Of a stretch of DNA of 64,000 nucleotides, positions 1,043-61,196 are shown one piece after another (the stretch's first letter is position 1; the number at the start of each line of letters is the position of its first letter). The position numbers and the translations under genes were made by a program. Origin of the DNA: Escherichia phage MET-P1-301. The notes under the pieces were generated by a model. It did not search any database and was not told the DNA's origin. It saw nothing but the letters and a program-made list of their open reading frames with translations. The DNA lies in the sequence record PV700625; one strand, written 5' to 3'.

Positions 1043-1291
1043 TTAGTTGTACCCTTGTTTGCTGTAGTACAGGGAGACAATCAAATCACCCCAATAATGG
1101 TAATGATGTTCATCGTTTAACGCCTCTTTTACTGCATCTTTCCAGAAGTCATCAGTAGGGTTATAATCTGGGATAACTTGCTTGATAACTGTCTTCACTA
1201 ATGAAAAGCATTCATCAGTTCCACCAATATCAAATTTAACGTCCAGAGTGTAGCAGCCATAAGCATTAACAGTAGCGCGGATAGTAGCCAT
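1043..1291 (-). CDS. hypothetical early protein (82 aa)
   Basis: ORF preceded by family-A leader cassette and GGAGA Shine-Dalgarno. Confidence 0.5.
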   Translation of the reverse strand: MATIRATVNAYGCYTLDVKFDIGGTDECFSLVKTVIKQVIPDYNPTDDFWKDAVKEALNDEHHYHYWGDLIVSLYYSKQGYN

Positions 1292-1365
1292 TTTTGAATC
1301 TCCTAGTTTAAGGTATTTATCTAGTGGGAGGTTATTACCTCCCGTTGATTAGTAATTTACTGCAT
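1292..1365 (-). promoter_or_regulatory. Early-gene leader cassette, family A
   Basis: Conserved ~75 nt directly 5' of the ATG: GGGAGG/CCTCCC-type hairpin, then ACTAAATAAAGTCCTTAAACTAGGAGATTC-AAAATG. Confidence 0.55.
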
Positions 1366-1619
1366 GTTGGCGTATGTTGCAAGCCTTTTTCGTTGTATTT
1401 TGTAAGAATCTCACAAGATAAAACATCATATTTTTTAATCGCGTTACCTTTTTCGAGGTCAAAGAATCCGAACGCTTTACCGTCTTTGAATCCGACAACC
1501 TCGTAAGACTCTTTGATGATTTCACCATTGAACAAATCACTTTCGATACGATGGAATAGTGCTACATCCTCTTTGTCGGTTGCAATTTGTAAAAGTGTGG
1601 TCAGTTCGACGTGTTCCAT
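1335..1619 (-). CDS. hypothetical early protein (94 aa)
   Basis: ORF with family-A leader upstream; its C-terminus reads through the hairpin of the next cassette. Confidence 0.5.
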   Translation of the reverse strand: MEHVELTTLLQIATDKEDVALFHRIESDLFNGEIIKESYEVVGFKDGKAFGFFDLEKGNAIKKYDVLSCEILTKYNEKGLQHTPTCSKLLINGR

Positions 1620-1692
1620 TTTGAATCTCCAGTTTAGGATTTTATTTAGTGGGGAAGGTCATTCCCTCCCCGTTGATTGACAATTTACAGAT
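1620..1692 (-). promoter_or_regulatory. Early-gene leader cassette, family A
   Basis: GGGGAAGGtcattCCCTCCCC hairpin plus conserved SD-ATG context. Confidence 0.55.
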
Positions 1693-2215
1693 TTTTGATT
1701 GTCTCGTCAATATCTTTTTCAATATCTTTTAAAGTTTTTTCTAAGTTCTTGATATTGAAAGTTAAACCTTCACCGAGCGTTTTATAGTGACCATTAGGTC
1801 TATGGTCATAGAGTTCGATTTCTTCCACATCGGATAAGTTTACCATCTCACCATTTGCAGCATAGGCTATTGACACAGTATTTTCAGGTGCGTCGTAAAA
1901 CTTATTCAGTGACTTGATAGCACGTTCATAAGCCATTTTATAACCATTTAAAAGGTTTTTAACGTGATTGTGAACGTTTTTACAATCATCTAAGTAAAGA
2001 CCTAAAAACATCGGGAGAAGTTCCGCGACAGCTTGCATAAAGTGAGAGACTACAACGGTGGAAACATTACGACGATGGACGTAATAAGCCCCGTTTTCTG
2101 ATTTGGTAATGGTTGCAAAGTGTACACCATTGCAACGAAATTCATAGGTATCTTTAACAGGCTTAGACATTACAGCATTTGAACGAATGAAGTTGATAGC
2201 TTGAAATTTGTTCAT
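1685..2215 (-). CDS. hypothetical early protein (176 aa)
   Basis: Long ORF with family-A leader upstream. Confidence 0.55.
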   Translation of the reverse strand: MNKFQAINFIRSNAVMSKPVKDTYEFRCNGVHFATITKSENGAYYVHRRNVSTVVVSHFMQAVAELLPMFLGLYLDDCKNVHNHVKNLLNGYKMAYERAIKSLNKFYDAPENTVSIAYAANGEMVNLSDVEEIELYDHRPNGHYKTLGEGLTFNIKNLEKTLKDIEKDIDETIKNL

Positions 2216-2290
2216 TTTAGAATCTCCAGTTTAGGACTTTATTTAGTGGGAGGTTATTGCCTTCCCGTTGATTAGTAATTTACTTGTTTT
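2216..2290 (-). promoter_or_regulatory. Early-gene leader cassette, family A
   Basis: GGGAGGttattgCCTTCCC hairpin plus conserved SD context. Confidence 0.55.
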
Positions 2291-2433
2291 GATAGCTGAT
2301 TGCAAGCAATTTTTTAAGTTTATCTATAAAGAATCTTTTAAGTTAATCCCTTTTAGATAAACCCCTCGAACAAAGTTACCAATGTCAAGGGGAGTTGTCA
2401 ACACTTTTTTAAAAGTTTTTTGTAAGTTGTTGA

Positions 2434-2779
2434 TTAACTGATGAATATTTTTTCAGGTTTTACATAGCTGATACGCTGGCTTTTTAGCAGGTCATCCCAG
2501 ATTAGCGCGGCAATATGAGAATAGCCGGATTCACGTAAAATCTTCATTGTTTTACTTCTCGTTTCAAAACGGCTTGCGTAGTATTCACTGTTCAAGGTAG
2601 TTTTATTCCCTTCGTTATCTGTATGGATGATTTGCATTACCTGAAAGGGCTTACATCCTCGCCTTTGTTCCACTGCTCAAAGTATTTTAGGCACTGCATA
2701 GGCGACATCTTATCACTGACTTGAGTTGACCAAGATGAATCTTCTTTATTGGTAATTACAGTTACATAAGCCATTTTAG
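2434..2779 (-). CDS. hypothetical early protein, interrupted by an apparent frameshift near 2670
   Basis: ATG at 2779 sits directly behind a leader cassette; that 45-aa frame merges into the 79-aa ORF 2434-2673 after a one-base shift at an AAA run. Confidence 0.4.
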
Positions 2780-2853
2780 AATCTCCTAGTTTAAGGACTT
2801 TATTTAGTGGGGAAGGTCATTCCCTCCCCGTTGATTAGTAATTTACAGACTTT
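2780..2853 (-). promoter_or_regulatory. Early-gene leader cassette, family A
   Basis: GGGGAAGGtcattCCCTCCCC hairpin plus SD context, same as the copy at 1620. Confidence 0.55.
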
Positions 2854-2855
2854 TA

Positions 2856-3098
2856 TCAGGCTTGTCTAGTCTTTTCAATGATAATTTCATATTGACCATC
2901 GACGCTATCAAAATAAATGCCGTCGCTATCTTCTGTCTTAAAGTAACATTGTATATCATCACTGGCGGGATAGTCTTGTCTTGCTATCTGGCAAACTTGA
3001 ATAGCATTTTCTTTACTCCCTGTAAACTCCTCAAGCCCTTTAAAATCGCATGAATGACCGTTACAAATAGAAAGGATGAGATAAATGGTTGTCAACAT
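2856..3098 (-). CDS. hypothetical small Cys-containing protein (80 aa)
   Basis: ORF with hydrophobic N-terminus; no leader cassette, sits 68 nt downstream of the previous gene. Confidence 0.4.
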   Translation of the reverse strand: MLTTIYLILSICNGHSCDFKGLEEFTGSKENAIQVCQIARQDYPASDDIQCYFKTEDSDGIYFDSVDGQYEIIIEKTRQA

Positions 3099-3166
3099 GA
3101 TTTAAGCCTTCTAAATGGCCCTGTACGGGCCTTAAGTTGGAAGTTGGTGTCTTTGTACTGATTAGC

Positions 3167-3724
3167 CTAAAAGTCTTTTAAATTGCGTTCTGTGAGGTTT
3201 GCCGTGATTTTATCCAGTAGGTCACAATACACAGAGCAATCCCCGCTATTCTGCACAATTTTCGCCATACTTAACAAATCTTCGTCAATATCTCCTAAAT
3301 TACGGTTAGTTGTATCAGGTACAAAGAAAGGCGCATATATTGCACTAAATTTCGTCGAGTGAAGGCCAACAATCCAATCCTTATCAAAGTATCCGGTAAA
3401 ACTGGCGATATCACTCATGTTGTCACAAGAATAATCGTCTTCTAGCTCTTCCTCTGGGATATCCATTTCAATGACAATCACGTCCTGCGTTTCCATTTGG
3501 AAAGCTGCCGTAATAAGTCCAGACTCTAAAGCGTTTTGAATGCAGCGTTCACGGATGTAAGAATCTTCCTCATCTTCCAGACATTCCGTTTTGATAACCT
3601 TGTTCATTGGGTAAACGTAGAAACAATCGTCCATGTAGGAGCAGTTCCAGATTCCTTCCGGCTTGTCGCCACCATTCAGCAGGTTTACAAAGTTTTTGAG
3701 GGTAGTCCCGTGATAGCATTTCAT
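3167..3724 (-). CDS. hypothetical early protein (185 aa), acidic
   Basis: ORF preceded by family-B leader cassette. Confidence 0.5.
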   Translation of the reverse strand: MKCYHGTTLKNFVNLLNGGDKPEGIWNCSYMDDCFYVYPMNKVIKTECLEDEEDSYIRERCIQNALESGLITAAFQMETQDVIVIEMDIPEEELEDDYSCDNMSDIASFTGYFDKDWIVGLHSTKFSAIYAPFFVPDTTNRNLGDIDEDLLSMAKIVQNSGDCSVYCDLLDKITANLTERNLKDF

Positions 3725-3810
3725 TTTTGAATCTCCAGTTTAGGATTTAGTGGTAAAGCTCTTTATCTGGGGCTTACTTTATCGAACTATAAGCCCCTTG
3801 TAAAGTACTT
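3725..3810 (-). promoter_or_regulatory. Early-gene leader cassette, family B
   Basis: Perfect hairpin GGGGCTTA-13 nt-TAAGCCCC, then AGATAAAGAGCTTTACCACTAAATCCTAAACTGGAGATTCAAAAATG. Confidence 0.55.
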
Positions 3811-4012
3811 TAACGATTATTTTTGACAACTTTTAAAACTGCAAGATAACCTAAGCAATAAGAATCACCGAAGAGAGTTCTACCCATGAAAGAATCCTCT
3901 TTGATATCCTTTGCAGTGACAGTTTTTTCTACGCCGTGGGAAAGGACTACATCCCCAACTTTGATGTCTTTGATGTGTGTTGTTTCAATGGTTAAGCCGT
4001 TAATATTAGCCA
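3810..4012 (-). CDS. hypothetical early protein (start refined to the ATG at 4012, 67 aa)
   Basis: The conserved leader/SD places the start at 4012; the longer track ORF to 4058 would read through the leader cassette. Confidence 0.45.
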
Positions 4013-4088
4013 TTTTAGAATCTCCTAGTTTAAGGATTTTACTTAGTGGGAAGGTCATTCCCTCCCCGTTGATGAGTAATTTAATCTA
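4013..4088 (-). promoter_or_regulatory. Early-gene leader cassette, family A
   Basis: GGGAAGGtcattCCCTCCCC hairpin plus SD context. Confidence 0.55.
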
Positions 4089-4163
4089 TCTAGAAATCAG
4101 TGTCAACAGTTTTTTAGAGTTCTGCGTAAATTGCGTCACAAATATCACGAAAATCATGATTTG

Positions 4164-4516
4164 TTAAATTACGTTGCAACCATGTTGCAAAAAGTCAGCA
4201 ATTGCAAAATTTGCGTCATACTCGACAGATAGCCACACTTTCACGGCAAAACGAAACATTTTTAAATCAAGCTCTTTATTCATTACCTTTGATTTGCCTA
4301 ACATGTCAGCCATTTCATATTGTGCACCGTCTAGCGTGATACCTGCTGCAACGTCAGCCAATGAGTTTTTACACTTTCAACGTCTAAGATAACACTTTGA
4401 ATCTTCCCGATAATATTGTGCAATGTCTCATCAGGTGCTGATGATGTAATAACATTAATCCGGTTAACGGTTAAACGTGCTTTTAAGATTGATAACTCAC
4501 GGTTATTAATAGTCAT
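4164..4516 (-). CDS. hypothetical early protein, two overlapping ORFs probably joined by a frameshift near 4340
   Basis: Track ORFs 4331-4516 and 4164-4361 overlap in different frames; family-B leader sits upstream of 4516. Confidence 0.35.
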
Positions 4517-4600
4517 TTTAGAATCTCCAATTTAGGATTTAGTGGTAAAGCTCTTTATCTGGGGCTTACTTTATCGAACTATAAGCCCCTTGTAAAGTAC
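4517..4600 (-). promoter_or_regulatory. Early-gene leader cassette, family B
   Basis: GGGGCTTA...TAAGCCCC hairpin plus SD context. Confidence 0.55.
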
Positions 4601-4629
4601 TTTATACTAAATGCAGCTTTTACCTTTTA

Positions 4630-4872
4630 CTATGATGTAACTTGCTGCGCTATTGCCGCATACATCTTGATAAATTCTGCGCAAACGGCCTTCGTAGTGG
4701 ACTTTCCAGCTAGTTGGAATCTTTTTCCCGTATCCGGTAGCAGTTTTTGGAGTCCTGCTACTTGCCAATCTAAGATATGTTGCTCAGCTTGTAAATCTTC
4801 AAAGTGCATCACACCATCAACATAGTGACGTAGAGTGACATTTAAAGTACGACCGTTGTTAGTAGTATACAT
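4630..4872 (-). CDS. hypothetical early protein (80 aa)
   Basis: ORF preceded only by the SD part of the cassette (catttttgaatctcctagtttaagg). Confidence 0.45.
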   Translation of the reverse strand: MYTTNNGRTLNVTLRHYVDGVMHFEDLQAEQHILDWQVAGLQKLLPDTGKRFQLAGKSTTKAVCAEFIKMYAAIAQQVTS

Positions 4873-4895
4873 TTTTGAATCTCCTAGTTTAAGGC

Positions 4896-5054
4896 TTATT
4901 TTGACAGTTCACTAATTAAGACATCAAAGATTATATCATTATCTGCTACAGTTGCAACACCAGTGATATAATCAATTTCTAAGATAACAACAACTTTCGT
5001 ACATAAACCGTCATCTATATCATTCCAGACAACTTTATCACCTGCACAAAACAT
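4896..5054 (-). CDS. hypothetical small protein (52 aa, MFCAGDKVVWNDIDDG...)
   Basis: Hand-translated ORF below the 60-aa track cutoff, directly behind a family-A leader at 5055-5132. Confidence 0.4.
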   Translation of the reverse strand: MFCAGDKVVWNDIDDGLCTKVVVILEIDYITGVATVADNDIIFDVLISELSK

Positions 5055-5132
5055 TTTTTGAGTCTCCTAGTTTAAGGACTTTATTTAGTAGGGAGGTTAT
5101 TGCCTCCCCGTTGATGTGTAATTTAATCTATC
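5055..5132 (-). promoter_or_regulatory. Early-gene leader cassette, family A
   Basis: GGGAGGttattgCCTCCCC hairpin plus SD context. Confidence 0.55.
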
Positions 5133-5144
5133 TAAAAATCAGTG

Positions 5145-5477
5145 TCAACAGTTTTGTTTTCGTTTGCTCAATTCTTGAACAATTACAGCGTAGTAGTCTT
5201 TTAAGTCACTGATATTTAAAGCATTTATCAGAGAATTATAATCATCGACTAACTGGAAATCATCCTTGAAGATGTCACTTATCTGATAGGTTTTCGCTTT
5301 GAATCTGAAGCTCATCTCTAGCCGCTTTATTTGCTCATCACTGAGACGCCCTAGAAAGCTCTCTACAAGGTTATTGCTAACCTGCTGTGTGATTGCCTTA
5401 TTTGCTAGATTATAGGCTTTATATGCCTTATATAGCGCGAAAATGGCAATGATTGCAGTGATACCAGTCATTAACAT
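5145..5477 (-). CDS. hypothetical membrane protein (110 aa)
   Basis: N-terminal hydrophobic helix (GITAIIAIFALY). Confidence 0.45.
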   Translation of the reverse strand: MLMTGITAIIAIFALYKAYKAYNLANKAITQQVSNNLVESFLGRLSDEQIKRLEMSFRFKAKTYQISDIFKDDFQLVDDYNSLINALNISDLKDYYAVIVQELSKRKQNC

Positions 5478-5550
5478 GGTGTTTCCTCTTTACGTGATAC
5501 TTTGCCATTTACAGTTATCTCATAAGATTCTAATAAATCGCTTTTAGACT

Positions 5551-5766
5551 TTACAGGGCTTTTAAAAGTATCATCATAAACATTGACTTGCAATACAGGT
5601 TTTTATACTCCCTGCAACTATTCCATAAGCAAATCACTACACGACGGCCTTTGATTTTTCCGTGTAACCATTCCATAACATCATGACTATTCCTTGATGT
5701 TTCAATAAAATCAATTTTGTTGAGTAACTTGCTTAGATTTTCACGGATTTTATTTGATAATTTCAT
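5551..5766 (-). CDS. hypothetical early protein
   Basis: ORF behind a family-B-like leader; C-terminus may be frameshifted. Confidence 0.35.
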   Translation of the reverse strand: MKLSNKIRENLSKLLNKIDFIETSRNSHDVMEWLHGKIKGRRVVICLWNSCREYKNLYCKSMFMMILLKAL

Positions 5767-5850
5767 TTTTGAATCTCCAGTTTAGGATTTAGTGGTAAAG
5801 CTCTTTATCTGGGGCTATCTTAACAGCTTGATAACCCCATGTAAAGAAAT
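5767..5850 (-). promoter_or_regulatory. Early-gene leader cassette, family B variant
   Basis: GGGGCTATC...GATAACCCCA hairpin variant plus the conserved downstream block. Confidence 0.5.
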
Positions 5851-5854
5851 CTAT

Positions 5855-6367
5855 TTAGTTCTTAAAGATATTCATCACTGAATCTTTTAATGATTCCAAG
5901 CGTTCTAACACTTCAGATTCTGCGTCTGCGTTGTTCACTTCCTCTTTTAACCTATCCTCTAAATCATCGCCGTCACTATAGCACCAGTCGAAAGCATAAC
6001 CAATATAAAAGCTATCTAAAACCGTGTTGCCATTTGCATCTACAACTTTCGCGGCAATGTTATACTCTGAAGCCTCTAAATCTCTTTCTAGTTCTTTTTG
6101 TAAGCTTGTATAAGCCTCTTTTGATGGATTTTCCCGGCCTTGTTTTGCGTAGTCACTTGAAAGCTGTTTAAGGCTGTAATGTAAAGGGATTGCATATTTA
6201 AATTCATTATGCTGGCAGTTAGGATTTTTAACAGTCACACCGCCTTGATGGTCATCTGTAAATTCCCAATTATCAAGATTATGGCTTGCTTCAAAGCAAT
6301 TAACAGCTTCATAGATAATAGTGAATTTTTCTTTTACAACTTCAAAGGTAGCGTCTACAGTTTTCAT
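5855..6367 (-). CDS. hypothetical early protein (170 aa)
   Basis: ORF with family-B leader upstream. Confidence 0.5.
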   Translation of the reverse strand: MKTVDATFEVVKEKFTIIYEAVNCFEASHNLDNWEFTDDHQGGVTVKNPNCQHNEFKYAIPLHYSLKQLSSDYAKQGRENPSKEAYTSLQKELERDLEASEYNIAAKVVDANGNTVLDSFYIGYAFDWCYSDGDDLEDRLKEEVNNADAESEVLERLESLKDSVMNIFKN

Positions 6368-6450
6368 TTTTGAATCTCCAGTTTAGGATTGAGTAGTAAG
6401 TTCTTTATCTGGGGCTTAAGATATCAGCTTTTAAGCCCCTGTAAAGTACT
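6368..6450 (-). promoter_or_regulatory. Early-gene leader cassette, family B
   Basis: GGGGCTTAagatatcagcttTTAAGCCCC hairpin plus conserved block. Confidence 0.55.
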
Positions 6451-6453
6451 TTA

Positions 6454-6744
6454 TCAGTTAATTTTCAGTTTTGCATAGCCTCTCATTGTACGAATGGGGG
6501 ATGTTAAGGCTACGCGTCTAATATATGCCTTTTTCGTGTATACATTTGTCTTCCCGATAGTGTTTACACATGTAAAAAGGTTTATTGGTGAATTTTTTAA
6601 TTTCAACTGTCTATCAGTCTTCACGCCCCATCTTACATCAGATTGTTTTCCGTTGTCAACCACTTTCCCGCCTAACTTTTTCGCCATGATGCGAGCGTCA
6701 TCACGAGTTTTTGCAGGAACTACAACGTTTTTGATAATAGCCAT
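6454..6744 (-). CDS. hypothetical early protein (96 aa), basic
   Basis: ORF with family-B leader upstream. Confidence 0.5.
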   Translation of the reverse strand: MAIIKNVVVPAKTRDDARIMAKKLGGKVVDNGKQSDVRWGVKTDRQLKLKNSPINLFTCVNTIGKTNVYTKKAYIRRVALTSPIRTMRGYAKLKIN

Positions 6745-6830
6745 TTTTGAATCTCCAATTTAGGATTGAGTAGTAAAGCTCTTTATCTGGGGCTTACTTT
6801 ATCGAACTATAAGCCCCTTGTAAAGTACTT
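6745..6830 (-). promoter_or_regulatory. Early-gene leader cassette, family B
   Basis: Near-identical to the copy at 3725-3810. Confidence 0.55.
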
Positions 6831-6832
6831 TA

Positions 6833-7213
6833 TCAGTTAATTTTGAATATTGTCACATAACCATCACTACCAATTATTTGAGACGCTCCAGCTTTCTCCA
6901 CTGAATAGCCCATATTTTCAAGATGGTAAACAGCATCATCATAACCATATGCGCCACCTTGATAACGTCTCTTATTGCAGCTTATCAGGTTTTTACCACG
7001 TCCTGCCAGTGCATTCAGTACGGCTTTTTCACTTGATAACGTACCGTCTATCATTGTTGCCGTGTAATGGTTGATTTTATTCCCGTTGATATCATACTTG
7101 AAATTAAACGAGTGAACAATAATAACGTTACCTTTAAATTTTTCATCAAGTGCCTTCTCCAGTGCGTTGCGGAAGTTGTCTTTGTTGATGAATTTCGGTG
7201 CACGATAAGCCAT
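6833..7213 (-). CDS. hypothetical early protein (126 aa)
   Basis: ORF with family-B leader upstream. Confidence 0.5.
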   Translation of the reverse strand: MAYRAPKFINKDNFRNALEKALDEKFKGNVIIVHSFNFKYDINGNKINHYTATMIDGTLSSEKAVLNALAGRGKNLISCNKRRYQGGAYGYDDAVYHLENMGYSVEKAGASQIIGSDGYVTIFKIN

Positions 7214-7298
7214 TTTTGAATCTCCTAGTTTAAGGTTAATGTAGTAAAGCTCTTTATCTGGGGCTTAAGATATCAGCTTTTAAGCCCCTGTAAAGTAC
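7214..7298 (-). promoter_or_regulatory. Early-gene leader cassette, family B
   Basis: GGGGCTTAagatatcagcttTTAAGCCCC hairpin plus conserved block. Confidence 0.55.
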
Positions 7299-7301
7299 TT
7301 T

Positions 7302-11530: not shown

Positions 11531-12055
11531 GATTTACCTTAGAAATGTTTGTTGCAAATTCACATTGAGCGATAACTTTCATATTGTTATAGACATCTTG
11601 AGAGTATTTCTTAGCTTTAGGAATTTTGTACGAATACCCAGCATTATATGATGCTAAAACTTTTGTAAAGTCTTCTTTGACTTTGGCTGACCATGCACCT
11701 TTGTCCAAAACTCAAGCTCTTTATGTGTCTCTTTTGCTGCATAGTCAAAATCTTTTAAGAGTTTCTTTTTAGCCACATTAGGACTAATTTTGTTACGCTT
11801 TACAACAGTCTTCAAGTGATTCTGGAAAATACCATAGTCGTGGGTCTTTTTATTCTCTACCTTCAGACCTAACTCTGACTCTTGTAAGGCTATAGCTACT
11901 AGAGTAATACCCCAGCCTTTCCCCATATTATTCTCACCATACTGGTAAGCTTTTAACATGTTAACTTTTTGGCTAATTGATAGCTCTGGGCAGTCAACTG
12001 CATAAGATAAGTGTGCTGTAAACATTAAGCACAAGCCTAGAATCAATTTCTTCAT
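11508..12055 (-). CDS. Lytic transglycosylase (SLT domain) with signal peptide, candidate endolysin; apparent frameshift near 11700
   Basis: Signal peptide MKKLILGLCLMFTAHLSYA; SLT motifs ALQESELG, GIFQ and, in the overlapping 66-aa ORF, AYNAG. Confidence 0.55.
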
Positions 12056-12118
12056 TGGTTCTCCTGTTTAGTTCATCGTGACAACAATTATACAGCACTC
12101 TGCACAAAATACAAATAA

Positions 12119-12146
12119 AAAGGCCGCCGAAGCAGCCTTTTAAGAA
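12119..12146 (-). terminator. Possible weak terminator hairpin after rIIB
   Basis: Imperfect GC hairpin AGGCCGCCgaaGCAGCCT flanked by A/T runs. Confidence 0.3.
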
Positions 12147-12154
12147 ATTACTTA

Positions 12155-13264
12155 TTAGATTTCACGTTTACGTTGAGAGATAAGTTCACCAGCAGTGCCA
12201 ACGATGACATGCAAAGCTTCAGTCTTACCATCCCATACTTTCAGCACTTTACGTTGATTATCAACGATTGCTGCAACTTCATAACGAGAGGAACGCATCT
12301 TCATATCGTTGTAATCAGTTGGAACAGATACAACATCTCGTGGATGGACACGAACCTTCAGGATGGTATCACCTGAGAAGCAACGAACATAATCCCAAGC
12401 ACCAACATGAAGACCTTGAGAGCAAGTTACGTTACGGTTGTTATCAACCATCCAACGTGGCATCTCTACAATGTTACCTAAATCATTAGGTACTTTGTAG
12501 GTGTGAGAGTCAACCAGCTTGCCTTCACGAGTAGAGACTTTCTTCCAACCAATGATGTAGCCTTCTTCATCAATTTCAACATCAAGGTGAGATACAAATC
12601 CCCAAAGTTGTTCTACAGAATCTTTAGATGGGTTTTCCATCAGTTTTTCGAAGAACATTACAAGTCGTTCAAAACCTTTATCACCAGTTTTCATCATGTG
12701 AAGAATACGGTCAACCAGAGTAGAACGCATCTCAACAGCACCGTAGAAGAGCTTGTCACCTTTGATTGTGATAGCACCCTGAGTGAAGTTTTCGATAGAC
12801 TTACGAATGTTCATCAGTTCAAATGCTTTCTTGAACTCACCTTTCACAACATGAACTACAATTTCTTGATAGTTCGGATGAGTAGACTCAACAATTTCAG
12901 ATTCTGAACCGTAAGTCATAATTACAGAGTCGCCAGTAATCATGTACTCAATCTTGTCATCTTTCTGCATAGCTTCGTGCAGTTTATTTACTGGAGCTTT
13001 CTGTACAGCGTCTTTAACTACCTTTTCAACTGGTTTGTCAGCTTTCTTCTTAAAGGTCTTAGCAACTTGCTTCAAAGTCTTCGTAGCTGGTGTAGAAGCA
13101 ACCTTTTTCTTACCTTTTAAGGTTGCTTCATGACGCTCTACAGCACGACCAACTGAACGGGTTGAAGTATTAAATTTCTGTGCAATAGCTGTTTTAGTCA
13201 GCTTACCTTCTTTAACCAGTTTGTAAATTTCTGCGTCAATCTGTGCTTTAGTTTTAGTAGTCAT
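12155..13264 (-). CDS. rIIB: rIIB-like protein
   Basis: C-terminal two-thirds matches recalled T4 rIIB blocks (LFYGAVEMRSTLVDRIL, ENPSKDSVEQLWGF, TCSQGLHV, KVRVHPRDVVSVPTDYNDMKMR); sits directly downstream of the rIIA-like gene. Confidence 0.8.
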   Translation of the reverse strand: MTTKTKAQIDAEIYKLVKEGKLTKTAIAQKFNTSTRSVGRAVERHEATLKGKKKVASTPATKTLKQVAKTFKKKADKPVEKVVKDAVQKAPVNKLHEAMQKDDKIEYMITGDSVIMTYGSESEIVESTHPNYQEIVVHVVKGEFKKAFELMNIRKSIENFTQGAITIKGDKLFYGAVEMRSTLVDRILHMMKTGDKGFERLVMFFEKLMENPSKDSVEQLWGFVSHLDVEIDEEGYIIGWKKVSTREGKLVDSHTYKVPNDLGNIVEMPRWMVDNNRNVTCSQGLHVGAWDYVRCFSGDTILKVRVHPRDVVSVPTDYNDMKMRSSRYEVAAIVDNQRKVLKVWDGKTEALHVIVGTAGELISQRKREI

Positions 13265-13343
13265 CTTATTACTCTCTCTTGTTAGTTAATAAATCATTTT
13301 GTAAGGCTATTCTAAGGGGCTTTGAAGCCCCTTGTCAAACACT

Positions 13344-15709
13344 TTAATCGTAAACTGTAGTTCCTTCTGGAACACACTTCACATCAAAGCCTAAGAACTT
13401 ACTCACTTCGATGGGTGACACTTTATTCCAATCTAAATGAGAAAGCAAGAAGTTTTCTTGTTTTCTTTTTGAAAGGTAGTTTGTCACCTTAATAACCATA
13501 CGGTCACCAGCTTTCTTAATTTTCTTGTAAAGCTTTGTATCGTTGTCAAGACAGTCTTTCAAAGTTTTCAATACACTAATAGTATAAGTGTATGCAAATG
13601 GTGCAGCAACGTATTGGATTTTACCGAACATTGCCTCTACAGCCTCTTCATTACCTTCTAGGAAGATAGTTTTGTTTGTATCCCGTGAATAGCAATAACC
13701 ACGAGAAATCTTCCTATTATTGAATGTAAAGTTTCTGGCAATAATCCAGCTACTTGTAAGGTCAAGAACACCATTCATATAGATGCGTGTCATATACCTG
13801 TTATGATTAATCCAATGAACATCAGTTAAGCTGTCGTTCAAGAGCTTCTCATCTACTTCAATCCAGTCTTCTGGTATCTTTTTCCAATTTGCTTTTCGGA
13901 AAACATAGACTGTCTTTCCAATAACATTAGCAACTGACTTAGCTACATCTTCTGGGGATGAGCAAAAACATTCACCATCAACTGTGTCACCAATTGCCTT
14001 AATGTAAAGCTGAGGTTCTTCAATTGTGTCTAAGTCCTCTGACACCTCTTTGTAGGAGGCTACACCTTCTGCTGGAACAGCTTTCCAGAGTTTTACAACA
14101 CCTCTTACAGCTTCTTTACGCTGGTAATGGTGTTCCTTATCAGACATTTTCACAATCTTTAACAAGCTTTTATCAAGTTTGTGCAGATTGATTAAGTCAT
14201 CTAACTCTTTTTCAGTCGAGAATACAAAGACAATACCATTGTATCTGTGAAACAGACTTGACTCACTGGCATAGTCTCGACATGCACCACGCAAGATTTG
14301 GTTGCGTCCTACAGTCTTCTCAGTACCATTTTTATTGCGACGGTCATTTATAACAAACAAAAACTGTTCAATTTGGCTTTTACGCATTGCGCCAAAGATA
14401 TTGAACATACTTGCCTCTTGAGTGTAGGAAAGTGCTGTTGCACGAATCTTACTCTCTAAAGAGTTGAACTTGACATAAGCAACTGGGTCATAAAGATAAT
14501 CTACTTTAGGGATGTTGTTTCCGTTCCTATCAACCTTAATATTACCTTTACCGTCACGTTCATAAATGACTGAGCCGTCTTCTGCGTAGATAATTCCACG
14601 ACGAATGTTTAGTAATTCTTCTTCCAGAGAATCAAGCTTAACGCCTCCCCACTCTAACTTTGGACACACAGCATTAAACATCTCTCGTGAGTTCAAACGT
14701 AACTCAGCATAAGCCTGTGCAGCATCCATGAGTGTAGGTTGACTGTTAACTTTCTTGATAACATCCTTTGTAATTGCTTCAGTTATCTTTTAGTAGCCTC
14801 AATGATAACATTTTTTGTCGTGTCATTCATCTGCAATGCTTCACGAGAAGCTGCAATAGCGACTGAACCAATAGGCATGTAGATGTTTACAAGGTCTACG
14901 CTCCTACGGAAAAATTCTGGCAATACTTTGAAGAAATCATCACCAAGTAATGCTTCCATGTTAACAGGGTAGGCAATGTTACCCATCACCACATTAAACT
15001 CTGTCCTGTTACCACTAGAACGCCAGCTTTGCTTATGAATCATGGCATCATAAACACCCTCTTCACGGGCAATGACGTTCATATCTGCTAATACATCGTC
15101 GTACACAATATTACTTTCTGGTTTTACAGCAAAGTATGAGTATACATTACCAGCTTCTTCAAAGAACTTTGAGATACGGTGGTCAGCAACTGCCACACGT
15201 ACAGCTAAACCATTAGGTTCTTTTGTTGGGTTAGTGGTCAGCTTAGTTACTTGAGGAATACCATTCTCAAGATAAACAGAGTACTTATTAACAACACCAT
15301 CAACATAGCTAGATACTGTGAATGACTGAGCAATTGCAAATGGTGACTTTGAGCCGATACCCATTGCACCAATGTAATCATTGGAGTCATTCTTCGTAGA
15401 AGCTCCGTAGTTCAGATACAAACTCATTACTTTGTCATGGGTTAAACCAGTTCCAAAGTCACGGACTTCAAAGTAAGGCTCAAAACGAGTAGGTAAATGC
15501 ACATGGAACGGGATGTTCTCTTTTCCAGCTTCTTTCTGAGCATCTACTGCGTTACATGACAGTTCACGAATCACTGCCCTTTCTTTAAAGGTATATACAC
15601 CAGAACTCAAAAGGCTGAACATCTCAGGTGTCATTGTAATCTGTGCTTGAGACGTCTCTAAAGAAGTTGAACTCTTAATCACTTCTGCGTGGTCATTTAC
15701 CATGCGCAT
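13344..15709 (-). CDS. rIIA: rIIA-like protein (N-terminal GHKL ATPase fold), two ORFs probably joined by a frameshift near 14730-14785
   Basis: 14783-15709 has GHKL-type motifs (RELSCNAVDA, RDFGTGL, YIGAMGIGSKSPF, AIAASREAL) recalled from T4 rIIA; 13344-14729 continues; combined ~780 aa; rIIA-rIIB synteny. Confidence 0.7.
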
Positions 15710-15737
15710 AATACTTTCCTCTTAGTTTACTGTTAAA

Positions 15738-15914
15738 TTACTTATTAAACATTTTACCAGAACCACCACACATAGGGCAACAACCTGCTCTTGTATACCC
15801 TTCTCCGTTACAGTAGTCACACTTCTTGTGTTCTGCAAAGTACTTACAAAGAAGGTAAACAAGGACTGCTACACTACCAAGTGACAGTAAAATTTCTACC
15901 CAATATGCTTGCAT
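15738..15914 (-). CDS. small membrane protein with C-terminal zinc-finger-like repeat (58 aa)
   Basis: Hand-translated: MQAYWVEILLSLGSVAVLVYLLCKYF...CDYCNGEG...CPMCGGSG. Confidence 0.4.
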   Translation of the reverse strand: MQAYWVEILLSLGSVAVLVYLLCKYFAEHKKCDYCNGEGYTRAGCCPMCGGSGKMFNK

Positions 15915-15924
15915 GACTCACCTC

Positions 15925-16230
15925 TCATGTTTTTGTAAAGGATAAAGCTTCTGTCATGGACGATACTTGTAGATACTGCAAAGTTACTTTCAAGCATCTG
16001 TTTGTTTGGATTGTAGAAGCTTTCTTTAAACTCGTCAAGTGCAAATTGGTGATTGTCTGGAAGACCTTTACACACACCTTTATTGTGATTGCTGCTGCAA
16101 TCTTCCCAGTCAGTTCTTCTTTAGCTGCTACTAAGATTTTGTTGAGGAACTTATGACCATTTTCAGGCTTCTTGATGTTCTCCCAACGCTCTTCTAAGAC
16201 AATGTTGATGTTCATCTCTTTGATTTTCAT
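15925..16230 (-). CDS. hypothetical protein, possibly frameshifted
   Basis: ORF between nadV and the zinc-finger ORF. Confidence 0.35.
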   Translation of the reverse strand: MKIKEMNINIVLEERWENIKKPENGHKFLNKILVAAKEELTGKIAAAITIKVCVKVFQTITNLHLTSLKKASTIQTNRCLKVTLQYLQVSSMTEALSFTKT

Positions 16231-16244
16231 AATTTTCTCCAGAA

Positions 16245-16269
16245 ATTAAAAAGGCTCCCGTAGGAGCCT
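16245..16269 (-). terminator. Intrinsic terminator downstream of nadV
   Basis: AGGCTCCcgtaGGAGCCT followed on the minus strand by TTTTTAATTT. Confidence 0.6.
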
Positions 16270-16283
16270 ATTATCATATACTT

Positions 16284-18064
16284 TTAAAGCTGCTTGTCAA
16301 TATTATTTCGAATATCGCCAAGAGTTGTGTAGCCGAACTGCTCAGAGTCGCTAAAGACTAAACGTAAAGCACAAGCTGGATGCTCAAGTGCATCTGCAAA
16401 ACTCTGGAATCCATAGCCATCTACAGCTTTCAGATTCTCACCATCCCACATAGGGGCTACACCACCAAAAGCGGACTTCTTAATACCACTATCTGTTTTA
16501 GGGTCTTTTGCAAGCATAATCTCTTTACCACCAATGCTTGCAAGAGTTGCTTTGACAGCAAATGCAAAGGTGTCACGAGTCATGTACTGGTAAGTGTAAG
16601 AACCTACACCAAACACTACGTTAGAGCTTGCAAAACCCATTTCATACAAACGCTTCAGGATTTCGTTTGCACGTTCCAACGTGATAGAGTCACCATAGAT
16701 AAGGCCAATGTGCTCATCCAGTACCTTAAACCCTTTAGAGTTGATAGTTCCTCCAAAGATGTTATACAGGGTCTTAATGGCCCCATCAATCTCTGCTACA
16801 GGACGTGTTACAACGTTTGCAGAACCAACCATATAAGCATTTTTCAACATCACTGTATCAGCAACTTCAAAGTCTTCTCTGTCAACAACCATTTCGTAGC
16901 CTTCTGACAGTAGCCATCCAGCAATACCATAGTTGATGTTTTCAAGCTTCATGTTCAGAACAGCATTCAACATTGTGTCACTGGCTTCCAGCTTGCTTAG
17001 GTGCTCGTAATAAGCCTTCTTAGCACATTCTAAGTGGATTGCTTTATAACCTGTGACAATATGTACAGGGTCTCCAGAGTCAGGACGAATTACCAGTTTG
17101 CCATCACGTTCCATAATTTCTTTACGAAGTGCTGGTAAAATTTCTGACACAGTTCTCCAGAAGTTATAAGTGTCTGAAACAACACTTGCAATGCCAGTTG
17201 GGTAAGTTTCTGTTAAGAAACGACGGAAGGTTTGTAACTCACCTTTAAAGCGTCTTTCTTCTTCAATCAACTCATTACCACCTTCCCAAGCAATGTTTGC
17301 ACACATTACAGAGTGCTCAGTGGCTGGTACAGAACTACCAATATCAGAAATTGGGTAAGACTGTCCATAGATTCGTTTAGCCGTATACACAGCAGGAAAG
17401 CTATCAGTTCCTTTAAAGCTTGTTAAGTGACCTACAGCATTAAATGCGTCATCGGTAAAGCCGGACATACCACGCATAGCAAAGTCATGGCACTGATAAG
17501 GTAAATGTAATTCATTGTCGCAAGTAAGGTCAGCCCACTTCTTACAGATACGTTTGTAGTGCAATGCAATAGTCGCAATAGTGCAAGCCTTCCAAATCTC
17601 AGCAGAGAAAGCATCTTCCAGATAACCTGCTACCCAATGGAATCCTGAAACAGTGTTCTGGAAGACAATCATTGGGACACGCATCGGAACAACTGTGCCT
17701 TCTTCTACAGCGTATACTTCGACTGGCAGATAACCTAAGTCGTGAAGTGCTTCCCAATGCTCTCGACCAATAGCATCTTTGCCCAGAACACCGTTCATGA
17801 CTTCTAAGATTTCGTCAATTGCTTCTTTTTATCACGTTCAAAGAAAGTGGCATTCCAGTGGTCTATCAAGTAATCTTTAACAAAACGTTGAATACCAAAA
17901 GCTACTACACCGTCAATTGCTAAGGGGCTGTTAAACCATTTATCACTACGTGGTGTCAGGTTGAACATCAAGTACTCTGTTGCGCTAGGATACTGGTAAA
18001 CATGACCAGATTTGTAAGCATCTGCATTTAAACCTGCTGGTACTGCATAAAGTGATTTAGTCAT
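16284..18064 (-). CDS. nadV: Nicotinamide phosphoribosyltransferase (NadV/NAMPT), interrupted by an apparent frameshift at 17798-17830
   Basis: ORFs 17804-18064 and 16284-17798 together read as a full-length NAMPT-like protein (~590 aa); the junction sits in an A5 run (gataaaaagaag). Confidence 0.8.
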
Positions 18065-18109
18065 CTTTTAATCTCTCTCAAAATGGGGCTTGGAAGCCCC
18101 TATAAAGTT

Positions 18110-30179: not shown

Positions 30180-30398
30180 TAGTTATCAAGCACAATTTGC
30201 TTTCATTACCTTATGGATTCTTTTTTCAGCATCTTCATAAGTTTCTTTAGTAATAAACTTAATTGCTGCAATATTGGCATTGTAGAAGAGTCTGAGCTTA
30301 GAGTCAATCCTTTTGTCATTACATCGAATTTATGTTGAAGGTTTGCTTCACCATAAACTAGCCCACCTTTTGTGCAGTAGGTCTGGATAATGTAAAAG

Positions 30399-30680
30399 TC
30401 AAAAATTCTTTTCCAAAGCTCTCAATATCTTTTTAATATACTCAGAAGAAGTCTCATAAGTCATCCAATCGCTTTCCTTAGTGACTACCTTCTTCCGAGT
30501 CTTCCCAGCAACTTTTCTTTTGGTCACACTATTAAGCTGTTTCTTTCCGATATAATATTGCCCAGTCTTCTTACAGTGTACTAAATAGACAAAGCCAAAA
30601 TGTTTAGTGGGGTCAACTTTCCCACATAAAGATACCCAATGACCGTAGGTAGGGCAATTGCCAAATCCTTTAATCTTCAT
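30399..30680 (-). CDS. GIY-YIG homing endonuclease (catalytic domain), likely continuing to ~30200 after a frameshift at a TTTTT run
   Basis: GIY-YIG core FGFVYLVHCKKTGQYYIGKK; the next frame continues 30200-30398 as DFYIIQTYCTKGGLVYGEANLQHKF... Confidence 0.6.
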   Translation of the reverse strand: MKIKGFGNCPTYGHWVSLCGKVDPTKHFGFVYLVHCKKTGQYYIGKKQLNSVTKRKVAGKTRKKVVTKESDWMTYETSSEYIKKILRALEKNF

Positions 30681-30773
30681 TCATACACGGCTCCCAATTA
30701 TATTTCTTGAAAGAGAAATTATCTTTTGGATTTCTCTCTTGATAAGCTATCCAGAAATGCTGTTCCATTAGCT

Positions 30774-31709
30774 CTAACGGTGTCTTTGTAACAGTCTGTC
30801 CATCCCATGATACATAGGTGTAAGAGTCTTTTTAGCATAGAGTTCATAGATAGCATCAAGACACTCTTTGTAGGTCTCTTTACCATCTAAAGCATTCATC
30901 ACAGCTACTTTACCAGCACCTTTAAGTCCGAAGTAGTTGTCTGCATTATCTCCAGCAACAGCCTGATAGCACAAGAACTTAAAACCTACACCAACTGTTT
31001 TTGCAGCTTTTGGTTTTGATTTGATAGGACAATCCCAGATATCACCAACATTATTATCAGCAATAAAGATTAGTGGTGATTTTTCATAAGTCATATCAAT
31101 ACAATAAGTTCCTTCAGCTTGTCGAAGGTCTTTGTCAATACTCATAAGAGCAGCCTTCTTACCCATCTTTTCAGCTTTAGCAATTACGATTGAATCGGCT
31201 TCGAATCCTCCCTTTAAGAGTTTGAACTCTGGTCTTGACAGAAGGTATTCACGACAAGCGACTAAGTGTGTTGGTGTGACAGCATCTTTACGGTTACCTT
31301 GATATTGGTGCTCAAGACCTTTAATGTCTTTATGTTTATGCACACCTTTCTCTGTTAAATAACCTACCCAAGTTCTCTCTTTACCAACCACCTTAAGCCA
31401 TTCCTGAAGAACCTGTTGAGTAGCCATGATAGCTTCTTTCTCACTCTTAGCTTCTTTCCAAGTCTGTCTTTCCCATTCATCTTCATCAAATGTCAGTCCA
31501 AGTTCTTCCACAAGGATTCTCTGGTCTGCTAACCATCTTGCAGCATCTTTCGCATTATCAAATGGCTCAGATTCTTCTGCTGTGAGTTTATTGACATATT
31601 TATATTTTGCTTTCTCAACTACACAAGCACCTTTATAGGCAATACTGTCAGAGTCAATAAAGACATGTGTAACTGAATCGGGAAGCTTTGTTAATGTGTA
31701 CTTCTCCAT
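30774..31709 (-). CDS. 5'-3' exonuclease (T7 gp6-like)
   Basis: Acidic metal-site blocks (VFIDSDSIAY; IFIADNNVGD...AGDNADNYFGLKGAG) and placement in the replication module. Confidence 0.5.
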   Translation of the reverse strand: MEKYTLTKLPDSVTHVFIDSDSIAYKGACVVEKAKYKYVNKLTAEESEPFDNAKDAARWLADQRILVEELGLTFDEDEWERQTWKEAKSEKEAIMATQQVLQEWLKVVGKERTWVGYLTEKGVHKHKDIKGLEHQYQGNRKDAVTPTHLVACREYLLSRPEFKLLKGGFEADSIVIAKAEKMGKKAALMSIDKDLRQAEGTYCIDMTYEKSPLIFIADNNVGDIWDCPIKSKPKAAKTVGVGFKFLCYQAVAGDNADNYFGLKGAGKVAVMNALDGKETYKECLDAIYELYAKKTLTPMYHGMDRLLQRHR

Positions 31710-51325: not shown

Positions 51326-51371
51326 TATGAATTTTCCTCTTAAAAGGGGCTATAAAGCCCCTGTAAAGAAA

Positions 51372-55178: not shown

Positions 55179-58653
<3,475 letters not shown>

Positions 58654-60557: not shown

Positions 60558-61196
60558 TTACATTTTTCCTGCTCTTCTAAGTTCGTTGTAAGCAATTTCC
60601 TCTTTATACGACCTCTGAATCTCAAGAAATTGTCTCAATGATAATAAATCAGAGAATGTCATAGCAAAGAGTTGGTCAAGTGTTTCTTTACACCCTTCCA
60701 TACCATAAATAGCAAGCACAAATTTCATCTCGTCTGCTTCTTCATAGGTTGCCTCTACAGCAGCATCAGTCAGTGGTGTCTGTAGAGTATTGCCTATGTT
60801 TACTGAGAAGTTAGGCTTTTGAAAATGCTTGCTTCGAAAACTTCCGAAGTTTGCCTCCAGCGCAAATGCTAAGTAATCAATAAACTCGCCGTAGTTTGCT
60901 TGGAAGTACGTATCAATATTAAGTGGGAAGTCATCAACAGTTGCCCCTTGAAATAGTAATGTAGCCATTTCTTCAAGGTTAATTTCTTCAATTCTGTCAA
61001 AACAAGCTTCAACAAGTTCTTTAAATGGAACCATTGGAGCTTCTTTCTTGTCTTTATCAGTCAGACTTGACAGCATCTGTGCAAAGGTTGGGACAACAAT
61101 TTTACCCAACTTCATAGACATCTTAATACCATCTCTTGCCCCAAGCAGAACAATATTTACTTTCTTACCATTAATTACTCTAGATTCTGTTTTCAT
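60558..61196 (-). CDS. Tail assembly chaperone-like protein
   Basis: 212 aa between tube and tape measure (P2 gpE position). Confidence 0.4.
   Translation of the reverse strand: MKTESRVINGKKVNIVLLGARDGIKMSMKLGKIVVPTFAQMLSSLTDKDKKEAPMVPFKELVEACFDRIEEINLEEMATLLFQGATVDDFPLNIDTYFQANYGEFIDYLAFALEANFGSFRSKHFQKPNFSVNIGNTLQTPLTDAAVEATYEEADEMKFVLAIYGMEGCKETLDQLFAMTFSDLLSLRQFLEIQRSYKEEIAYNELRRAGKM

Follow-up and report, generated by a model that had tools for sequence, protein, structure and literature searches.

The rIIA-rIIB pair of a Felix O1-like phage: a very probable counter-defence module whose rIIA gene is split by an apparent sequencing undercall

The closest described counterparts of the locus studied here are the rII genes of other Ounavirinae. 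In the phage SUSP1, knockdown of either rIIA or rIIB results in sensitivity to RexAB (PMC11879866). In the Felixounavirus Bas63, deletion of g84 or g85 reduces plating 1e4- to 1e5-fold on hosts carrying qatABCD, and plating is restored by complementation (PMC11482910). According to the literature, loss of rII function also renders T4 sensitive to Rex-type exclusion or abortive infection. The sequence analysed here, referred to as the window, is a stretch of 64,000 nucleotides from Escherichia phage MET-P1-301 (PV700625), in which the original prediction had recognized a rIIA-rIIB pair and had called it mechanistically unclear. For this phage group, the pair is a less open question than that wording implied, because the consequences of rII loss on Rex-type hosts have already been tested in Ounavirinae relatives (PMC11879866, PMC11482910). 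The region shares 96-97% nucleotide identity with more than 100 Felixounavirus genomes in which rIIA and rIIB are annotated at this position. It is an ordinary, already-annotated rIIA-rIIB pair of a Felix O1-like phage, and its sole oddity is the broken reading frame of rIIA. Very likely, it constitutes the rIIA-rIIB counter-defence module of a Felix O1-like myovirus (genus Felixounavirus), the two products of which are proposed to act as a complex, and the split of rIIA is a sequencing undercall. The finding is of little value as a discovery: over 200 Felix O1-like genomes carry an annotation of the pair at this place, rIIA has already been published as a GHKL protein and the counter-defence role has been tested in Ounavirinae relatives. 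The features of the two genes are as follows.

12118 to 12141, minus strand: intrinsic terminator closing the rII unit, a 10-bp stem followed by a T-run, both of which a terminator requires
12155 to 13264, minus strand: rIIB coding sequence, an intact ORF of 369 aa with the coordinates of the annotated rIIB of relatives
12167 to 12985, minus strand: conserved core of rIIB, residues 94-366
rIIB residues 53-91: basic disordered linker after the helix-turn-helix (HTH) domain
13112 to 13249, minus strand: N-terminal HTH domain of rIIB, residues 6-51
13344 to 14789, minus strand: 3' part of rIIA in the other frame, 481 codons and a stop, lineage-variable C-terminal region
14783 to 15709, minus strand: 5' part of rIIA, 308 codons followed by a premature TAA, GHKL ATPase and transducer-like domain
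14788 to 14791, minus strand: frame-break site of rIIA, a run of four A (A4) on the coding strand where relatives have five (A5)
15347 to 15370, minus strand: glycine-rich ATP lid of rIIA, G114-AM-G117-I-G119-S-K121, with G114, G117, G119 and K121 invariant in 34 homologues
15446 to 15460, minus strand: GHKL motif II of rIIA, D84-F-G86-T-G88, with D84 invariant and G86 and G88 at least 90% conserved in 34 homologues
15542 to 15565, minus strand: GHKL motif I of rIIA, E49-LSC-N53-AV-D56, with E49, N53 and D56 invariant in 34 homologues

The T4-like rIIB gene was correctly placed by the original prediction, with an intact ORF of 369 aa at exactly the coordinates given (12155-13264). Its product is matched by the RIIB lysis inhibitor profile phrog_609 in a PHROG search (E 4.3e-89) as well as by four further RIIB PHROGs, shows 36.6% identity to T4 rIIB over 331 aa (BLASTP, E 4.6e-61) and is 98.1% identical to KhF1 rIIB. 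The N-terminal HTH is of the sigma-region-4-like type (sigma-r4/LuxR-like) and is followed by a C-terminal core containing the blocks ..GLHV.. and ..HPRDVVSxPxDYND.KMR.., which are also recognizable in the T4 sequence. Invariant core residues are F204, N211, G235, K241, M268, R270, C281, G284-L285-H286, P308 and V312. Using tblastn, rIIB-annotated homologues were found in 2910 of 50,697 phage records. The model PF26926 gave no match to rIIB in our Pfam scans, from whose set it may be absent, and is precomputed on all but a few of the 120 homologues listed. No relative of the core was found among solved structures, PDB sequence searches returned no rIIB structure, and an exact-product look-up retrieved no record of the identical rIIB protein.

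For rIIA, predicted at 13344-15709, the outer boundaries stood, as the start at 15709 and the stop at 13344 agree with the annotated rIIA of relatives, but the gene is not intact in this sequence. The interval comprises 2366 nt, which is no multiple of three, and contains two ORFs in different frames instead of a single uninterrupted coding sequence; the break at 14788-14791 had been missed. Within the 3' part, the frame is open from 14789, and the ATG-started ORF spans 13344-14729 (461 aa). As expected for the order of the pair, rIIA directly precedes rIIB, and both are on the same strand. Of the 725 positions of phrog_612, the first rIIA piece covers 1-294 (E 3.2e-134) and the second 316-716 (E 1.6e-42), and BLASTP relates T4 rIIA to the window rIIA with an E value of 8.9e-37, the N-terminal part being 32% identical over 306 aa. 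A profile comparison against the rIIA and rIIB families, which had been proposed as a check, thus yielded PHROG matches for both genes (rounded, E 3e-134 and 2e-42 for rIIA and 4e-89 for rIIB).

The GHKL N-domain ascribed to rIIA could be confirmed: motif I, motif II and the lid are present, in the forms ExxxNxxD, DxGxG and GxxGxG, and the protein has the hallmarks of a Bergerat fold. Domain-level NCBIfam matches were obtained for the HSP90 family (E 2.7e-11) and sacsin (E 1.4e-7). Pfam HATPase_c (PF02518) scored 14.0 bits on rIIA (E 0.071), short of the gathering threshold of 26.4, and a Pfam scan of the three ORFs, i.e., rIIB and the two rIIA pieces, gave nothing above threshold; several rIIA homologues carry PF13589 or PF02518. 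An invariant Lys or Arg of the second domain was not evident in the alignment of homologues, and PDB sequence searches did not find a rIIA structure. Based on the sequence, rIIA is predicted to be a GHKL ATPase of the Hsp90/MORC type. Membership of rIIA in a defence system was considered using PADLOC and rejected, as the only resemblance is at the level of the GHKL domain to TmtA (E 3.6e-9); rIIB, the C-terminal part of rIIA and a 58-aa ORF upstream of rIIA had no PADLOC match.

The break in rIIA almost certainly results from a single-base homopolymer undercall and is no property of the phage, a reading based on the sequences of relatives and on the consideration that a phage in which 13 large genes are broken is implausible. 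All five relatives inspected at this site (KhF1, E9, UAB_Phi87, HY02 and Felix O1) have A5 where the window has A4, and the addition of one base at the break yields a rIIA ORF of 788 aa, which is 99.2% identical to KhF1 rIIA. The window contains 37 clean homopolymer shortenings, E9 none; homopolymer runs of six number 20 in the window versus 51 in E9, and 13 of 49 large ORFs of the window are frame-split, including those for the DNA polymerase (three pieces) and the tape measure protein (four pieces). In the repaired frame, the 3' part of rIIA shows 29:2 to 51:6 synonymous to non-synonymous codon differences from four relatives, ratios which indicate that the codons 3' of the break are under purifying selection and rule out an old pseudogenisation of rIIA. 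Alternatively, the frameshift would be real and the isolate a natural or lab-selected rIIA-null ('r'-type) phage, whose rIIA product would be limited to the GHKL fragment of 308 aa, with a possible restart at the in-frame ATG at 14729 downstream of the break. The rII genes are non-essential where the host lacks the cognate defence, and loss-of-function mutations are readily selected, as exemplified by T6 rIIB frameshifts which escape a gasdermin system (PMC10312443). However, one would have to assume that the same kind of one-base shortening arose 37 times in the window and not once in E9, and similar shortenings disrupt the genes for the DNA polymerase, the tape measure and the baseplate, all of them essential, such that a phage with these breaks would not be viable. 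Together with the strong purifying selection still seen in the downstream codons and the absence of the exact 308-aa product from all public assemblies in the exact-product look-up, this makes a real mutation very unlikely. A programmed -1 ribosomal frameshift or transcriptional slippage, by which full-length rIIA would be made alongside a short protein with the GHKL domain only, has a negligible probability and was rejected. The A-run at the break (ACT AAA AGA TAA) would allow a -1 shift to restore the frame; however, the relatives have an uninterrupted ORF with A5 in five of five cases, such that a shift is neither needed nor conserved, a TAA immediately upstream in the -1 frame narrows the shift window to one or two codons, and the genome-wide pattern of identical errors is the better explanation. 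A run of four A is also too short for efficient transcriptional slippage. With the undercall as the preferred reading, the break says something about the quality of the data and nothing about family membership, since it is judged to be a sequencing artefact, and any 'split gene', 'pseudogene' or 'frameshift' found in this window should be distrusted because of its systematic homopolymer undercalls.

Both genes would be transcribed on the minus strand as one unit, which the strong intrinsic terminator after rIIB would end. This terminator (12118-12141) is annotated in KhF1 and corresponds to t2 of Felix O1, with which the covered part of the terminator table of the Felix O1 genome paper starts and which lies downstream of rIIB (PMC3185647). 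The region between the two genes contains three further features.

13265 to 13343, minus strand: rIIA-rIIB intergenic region, 79 nt
13309 to 13338, minus strand: sigma-70-like promoter candidate facing rIIB, TTGACA-N18-TAGAAT, with 11 of 12 consensus positions
13314 to 13333, minus strand: GC-rich hairpin in the promoter spacer with a stem of 7-8 bp, AAGGGGCTT-CA-AAGCCCCTT (as a whole, AAGGGGCTTCAAAGCCCCTT)

A TTGACA-N18-TAGAAT element with a GC hairpin inside had been noticed on the minus strand between the two genes; promoter candidate (13338..13309) and hairpin (13333..13314) are indeed present, and both are conserved in relatives. The intergenic region has the same length and a near-identical sequence in Felix O1, KhF1, E9, UAB_Phi87, KhF3 and HY02. 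Hexamers at a spacing expected of a sigma-70 promoter (16-18 nt) are found not only here but also in relatives, and the candidate probably provides rIIB with its own transcript. It is possible, though rather doubtful, that the hexamers are incidental, that the hairpin serves as a weak intrinsic terminator or affects RNA stability and that rIIB is expressed only by read-through from upstream promoters. The exact pattern occurs three times in the window versus 0.65 expected, and 3 of 100 shuffles reach three occurrences, which is only mildly unexpected by chance and thus a modest enrichment. Moreover, phiEa21-4 and Arno18 retain the hairpin and lack the hexamers at the same place, and in the part of the Felix O1 genome paper covered, the authors name five candidate promoters, none of which lies in the rIIA-rIIB intergenic region (PMC3185647). 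On the other hand, 11 of 12 positions match the consensus, and both hexamers are kept in the three genera Felixounavirus, Suspvirus and Mooglevirus despite divergence in the rest of the intergenic region and a spacer that goes from 18 to 17 nt.

The hairpin lies 11 nt past the stop codon of rIIA and has a predicted RNA fold of -15.3 kcal/mol (z -2.4). Hairpins of the GGGGCT..AGCCCC type are strongly non-random, with four occurrences in the window against 0.02 expected. A hairpin just after the rIIA stop is present in all five Ounavirinae lineages compared, at the same position; its stem exists in three sequence versions. A canonical terminator would have a U-tract, but none follows the GC-rich stem in the window (the tail is TTAGAATAGCC), and the terminator scan did not call the hairpin. 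An Rfam search of 12000-16400 gave only chance-level matches (E about 0.8), and no description of the promoter and hairpin arrangement was found in the covered part of the Felix O1 genome paper (PMC3185647). The spacer hairpin would occur only in RNA reading through from rIIA and, for this reason, most likely acts on the rIIA mRNA, either as a 3'-end stabiliser or as a leaky pause or termination signal. That the palindrome instead serves as an operator for a protein (the HTH of rIIB or another phage regulator), with control of rIIB at the DNA level and no RNA hairpin, is quite improbable. The palindrome is perfect and centred between the -35 and -10 elements, a common position for repressors, rIIB carries a sigma-r4/LuxR-like HTH, the stem is invariant across three genera without compensatory changes and the GGGGCT..AGCCCC palindrome recurs at three other intergenic sites in the window. 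However, two of these sites (18085 and 51346) have a T-run behind the palindrome and resemble ordinary terminators, variation between close relatives is confined to the loop, and more distant Ounavirinae keep the hairpin without promoter hexamers and with entirely different stems, which argues for selection on structure rather than on a recognition sequence. In Felix-type phages, the hairpin nested in the rIIB promoter spacer might also be a dedicated device that sets the rIIA:rIIB ratio, either as a read-through attenuator combined with an internal promoter or as an autoregulatory operator for the rIIB HTH, but this seems unlikely; if true, the device would connect the control of rII dosage with the fact that RIIB is known to be toxic and is sensed by host defences. 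The arrangement is a small regulatory feature that can be tested.

With regard to function, homology with the tested relatives suggests that the pair would be dispensable on naive hosts, and both genes would be needed together against the abortive-infection systems RexAB and QatABCD. The two proteins are proposed to work as one complex, in which rIIA would be an ATP-driven clamp and rIIB the subunit binding nucleic acid or a partner. A natural chimera, in which the GHKL domain of rIIA is joined to the C-terminus of rIIB (P0026), and a single PHROG profile spanning both rIIA and rIIB were counted in favour of a complex. The rII proteins had been described as membrane-associated, for which the sequence offers no support: the Kyte-Doolittle hydropathy over 19 residues peaks at 1.29 in rIIA and at 0.69 in rIIB, no segment of either protein is hydrophobic enough for a transmembrane helix, and an integral-membrane topology was rejected. 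Against a cytoplasmic mechanism stands that T4 rII proteins are classically found in membrane fractions; the published RexAB and QatABCD models, which invoke membrane depolarisation, also speak against it (PMC11879866, PMC11482910). Cytoplasmic models, which involve nucleic-acid or protein complexes, are nevertheless favoured over a 'membrane protector', because the domain picture is that of a soluble Hsp90/MORC-like ATPase and a HTH protein without transmembrane segments. We infer that the ATP clamp and the HTH protein would target the trigger or sensor of the defence system from within the cytoplasm and would not be seated in the membrane.

Among known systems, the Felixounavirus phages Felix O1 (rIIA gp1, rIIB gp2), KhF1, E9, UAB_Phi87 and HY02 have the same genes in the same order and on the same strand as the window. 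They share rIIA of 788 aa (in the window, after repair), rIIB of 369 aa, the 79-nt promoter and hairpin region and the terminator t2; KhF1 and E9 have 97.6-99.2% protein identity to the rII proteins of the window, and the only difference is the one-base homopolymer deficit of the window, which splits rIIA. By description, g85/g84 of Bas63 (JohannRWettstein) and rIIA/rIIB of SUSP1 belong to the same subfamily as the window and form an identical kind of two-gene module, in which each gene is required against QatABCD (Bas63) or RexAB (SUSP1) and otherwise dispensable (PMC11482910, PMC11879866). T4 has homologous proteins, with rIIA followed by rIIB on one strand, a GHKL N-domain in rIIA and a HTH N-domain in rIIB. 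However, the C-terminal two-thirds of rIIA are detected only by profile and not by pairwise BLASTP, the T4 proteins are shorter (rIIA 725 vs. 788 aa, rIIB 312 vs. 369 aa), the intergenic gap is 11 nt instead of 79 nt with promoter and hairpin, and the small upstream gene rIIA.1 is unrelated to the 58-aa TM/zinc-finger ORF found here upstream of rIIA, a comparison of the two having revealed no similarity. Hsp90/TRAP1/GRP94, MORC, SMCHD1, Topo II/GyrB and MutL share 11-16% identity with rIIA among the full-length top matches. In contrast to these GHKL ATPases, rIIA lacks the Hsp90 C-terminal dimerisation domain, a DNA gate and an endonuclease domain and has a phage-specific variable C-terminal region in their place.

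By megablast, the window comes from a Felix O1-like myovirus of the genus Felixounavirus; the stretch 12100-15800 shares 96-97% identity with KhF1, VpaE1_ev78, E9, UAB_Phi87 and many more phages, with 210 records that span 80% or more of it. At the matching positions, the relatives are annotated with a 1110-nt rIIB, a 79-nt spacer and a single 2367-nt (788-aa) rIIA. A PHROG profile search identified the 369-aa protein as RIIB (phrog_609, E 4.3e-89), and assigned two further ORFs to successive stretches of a single RIIA profile, one to positions 1-294 (E 3.2e-134) and one to positions 316-716 of 725 (E 1.6e-42), so that the gene identities given in the original prediction are right. The pair itself is already known and offers nothing new; rIIB homologues were found in 2910 of 50,697 phage records. 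The module comprises the following features:

12155-13264, minus strand: rIIB ORF, intact, 369 aa (ORF listing)
14783-15709, minus strand: rIIA 5' ORF, 308 aa (ORF listing)
13344-14729, minus strand: rIIA 3' ORF, 461 aa, in another frame than the 5' ORF (ORF listing)
13338..13309, minus strand: promoter candidate TTGACA-AGGGGCTTCAAAGCCCCT-TAGAAT, 11/12 consensus positions, 18-nt spacer
12141..12118, minus strand: canonical terminator after rIIB (terminator scan), corresponding to Felix O1 t2

The original prediction named rIIA at 13344-15709 correctly but missed a break in its frame, which is a data artefact. The interval is 2366 nt long, not a multiple of three; the junction reads ...GCT ACT AAA AGA TAA, and the second frame is open from 14789 (KITEAITKDV...), preceded by an in-frame TAA. 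At this junction (14788-14791), the window has A4, versus A5 in KhF1, E9, UAB_Phi87, HY02 and Felix O1, and the addition of one base yields a 788-aa ORF with 99.2% identity to KhF1 rIIA. Alignment with three relatives revealed that the window is short by one homopolymer base at four sites in 6.7 kb (about 11660, 12116, 14787 and 16066; T5→T4, A6→A5 or T4→T3). When 7500-64000 was aligned to E9 and runs of at least four in an otherwise perfectly matching context were counted, 35 one-base and 2 two-base shortenings were found, all in the window and none in E9; runs of six number 20 in the window versus 51 in E9, and runs of seven 0 versus 2. Other examples of such shortening in the window are at 17832, 24353, 30315-30834, 38846-39921 and 56426-60841. 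Thirteen of the 49 matched E9 ORFs of at least 120 aa are frame-split in the window, among them DNA polymerase (three pieces), the tape measure protein (four), the nicotinamide phosphoribosyltransferase NAmPRT and an exonuclease; breaks in genes such as those for DNA polymerase and the tape measure protein cannot be reconciled with a viable phage. Synonymous to non-synonymous codon differences 3' of the break, counted in the repaired frame against four relatives, are 29:2, 50:8, 39:10 and 51:6, and this overwhelmingly synonymous pattern gives no sign of pseudogene decay. An exact-product look-up found no record of the truncated 308-aa product in any public assembly. Because of the homopolymer, split-ORF, codon and look-up evidence, a genuine rIIA mutation is very improbable, and programmed frameshifting is scarcely credible. 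Any split-gene or frameshift finding from the window is suspect.

The hairpin-promoter nesting between rIIA and rIIB, present as predicted, is the sole mildly new item. The promoter spacer folds into a 7-8-bp GC hairpin (-15.3 kcal/mol, z -2.4). Felix O1 and its close relatives share this arrangement exactly; Suspvirus and Mooglevirus retain both hexamers and the GGGGCT/AGCCCC stem, with a 17-nt spacer, a different loop and diverged remaining intergenic sequence. In distant Ounavirinae, the promoter hexamers are gone and a GC hairpin still lies just past the rIIA stop, built from other stems (GGGCTG-GAAA-CAGCCC in phiEa21-4, TGGTGGC...GCCACCA in Arno18). A position kept while the stems change points to selection on structure, most simply that of an RNA. 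The hairpin lacks a U-tract, and the terminator scan makes no call there. Since a transcript from the candidate promoter would start downstream of it, the hairpin would be present only in RNA arriving from rIIA. On our reading, it stabilises the 3' end of the rIIA message or acts there as a leaky pause/terminator, and a separate rIIB promoter overlaps it. The Felix O1 genome paper (PMC3185647) names five candidate promoters, none of them in the rIIA-rIIB gap, and the part of its terminator table covered here begins at t2, downstream of rIIB.

The palindrome GGGGCT-N4-AGCCCC occurs four times in the window (0.02 expected); the other copies are at 1017-1032, 18085-18100 and 51346-51361, and a second hairpin, AGCCCC..GGGGCT, is found at 988-1005. 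The palindromes at 18085 and 51346 resemble terminators: on the minus strand, each runs into a T-run immediately before the RBS of the following gene. A terminator hairpin with T-run (16269..16252, minus strand) directly adjoins a near-consensus promoter, TTGACA-16-TATGAT (16300..16273, minus strand), in the gap from NAmPRT to the next gene; a transcript from this promoter would start inside the hairpin, making this a second compact terminator/promoter overlap. NAmPRT (16284-18064, minus strand) adjoins the rII module and is split at about 17832 by the same type of homopolymer error. In E9, a ribose-phosphate pyrophosphokinase gene adjoins NAmPRT, and an ORF annotated as NAD synthetase lies about 12 kb further on in the same genome arm; the three resemble a set for NAD salvage, which may also play a part in counter-defence. 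Several intergenic repeats of about 75-105 nt occur in the small-ORF region 1281-7301; they match multiple E9 positions at 89-98% identity and probably represent recurring cassettes with an early promoter or regulatory role.

The GHKL ATPase domain proposed for rIIA was confirmed. Pfam HATPase_c stayed below threshold (E 0.071), and NCBIfam gave significant domain-level matches to the HSP90 family (E 2.7e-11) and the sacsin ATP-binding domain (1.4e-7). Among 34 homologues of 30-79% identity, E49, N53 and D56 (motif I), D84 (motif II) and G114, G117, G119 and K121 of the ATP lid are invariant, and G86 and G88 nearly so, in agreement with Iyer et al. The label "membrane-associated" has no basis in these sequences, since neither rIIA nor rIIB contains a segment of transmembrane-helix-grade hydrophobicity (maximal 19-residue hydropathy 1.29 and 0.69). 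Just upstream of rIIA, a 58-aa ORF (15738-15914, minus strand) encodes a transmembrane helix at its N-terminus and two CxxCxGxG motifs resembling DnaJ-type zinc fingers; its PHROG match is phrog_3931 (unknown function), its annotation in KhF1 reads "putative membrane protein", and T4 rIIA.1 shows no relationship to it. A membrane link of the rII module, if there is one, would make this neighbour a candidate partner.

In T4, rIIA and rIIB are required in the presence of RexAB and dispensable in its absence. The original prediction implied that a Rex-type test was still to be done, which is out of date for this group: knockdown of rIIA or rIIB in SUSP1 (Ounavirinae) lowers plating on RexAB hosts (PMC11879866). 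Deletion of g85 or g84 in the Felixounavirus Bas63 reduces plating on qatABCD hosts 1e4-1e5-fold, a defect that is reversed by complementation (PMC11482910). RIIB of phage T6 sets off a gasdermin defence system and, expressed by itself, is toxic (PMC10312443). P0026, a 244-aa protein from an 8.7 kb Logan assembly contig, has an rIIA GHKL domain, 46% identical to rIIA residues 18-189, followed directly by the C-terminal signature block of rIIB, 49% identical to rIIB residues 290-330, and the PHROG 609 "RIIB" profile, with 1055 positions, spans rIIA-N and rIIB; these are either natural rIIA-rIIB fusions or assembly artefacts. Co-essentiality, conserved adjacency, the P0026 chimera and the profile across both proteins suggest that rIIA and rIIB act as one complex, in which rIIA would be a putative ATP-driven clamp and rIIB may contribute an HTH and a novel core. 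The site of action of such a complex would be the cytoplasm, and its target the trigger or sensor of abortive-infection systems; it would not be an integral membrane component.

As natural fusions, P0026 and PHROG 609 would be reminiscent of the T4 r1589 deletion. The likeness of rIIB to its T4 counterpart, pointed out in the original prediction, was borne out by the actual T4 sequence (36.6% identity over 331 aa, E 4.6e-61); the N-terminal 300 residues of rIIA are 32% identical to T4 rIIA (E 8.9e-37), and its C-terminal part has no detectable pairwise similarity to the T4 protein. The Bas63 PhageMaP paper puts g85/g84 at ">80% sequence homology" with T4 RIIA/B (PMC11482910), a figure that cannot be percent identity, since the identity between Felixounavirus and T4 proteins came to only 32-37% here. 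The rIIA-rIIB pair of the window and Felix O1 gp1/gp2 represent one module, orthologous to T4 rIIA/rIIB though divergent.
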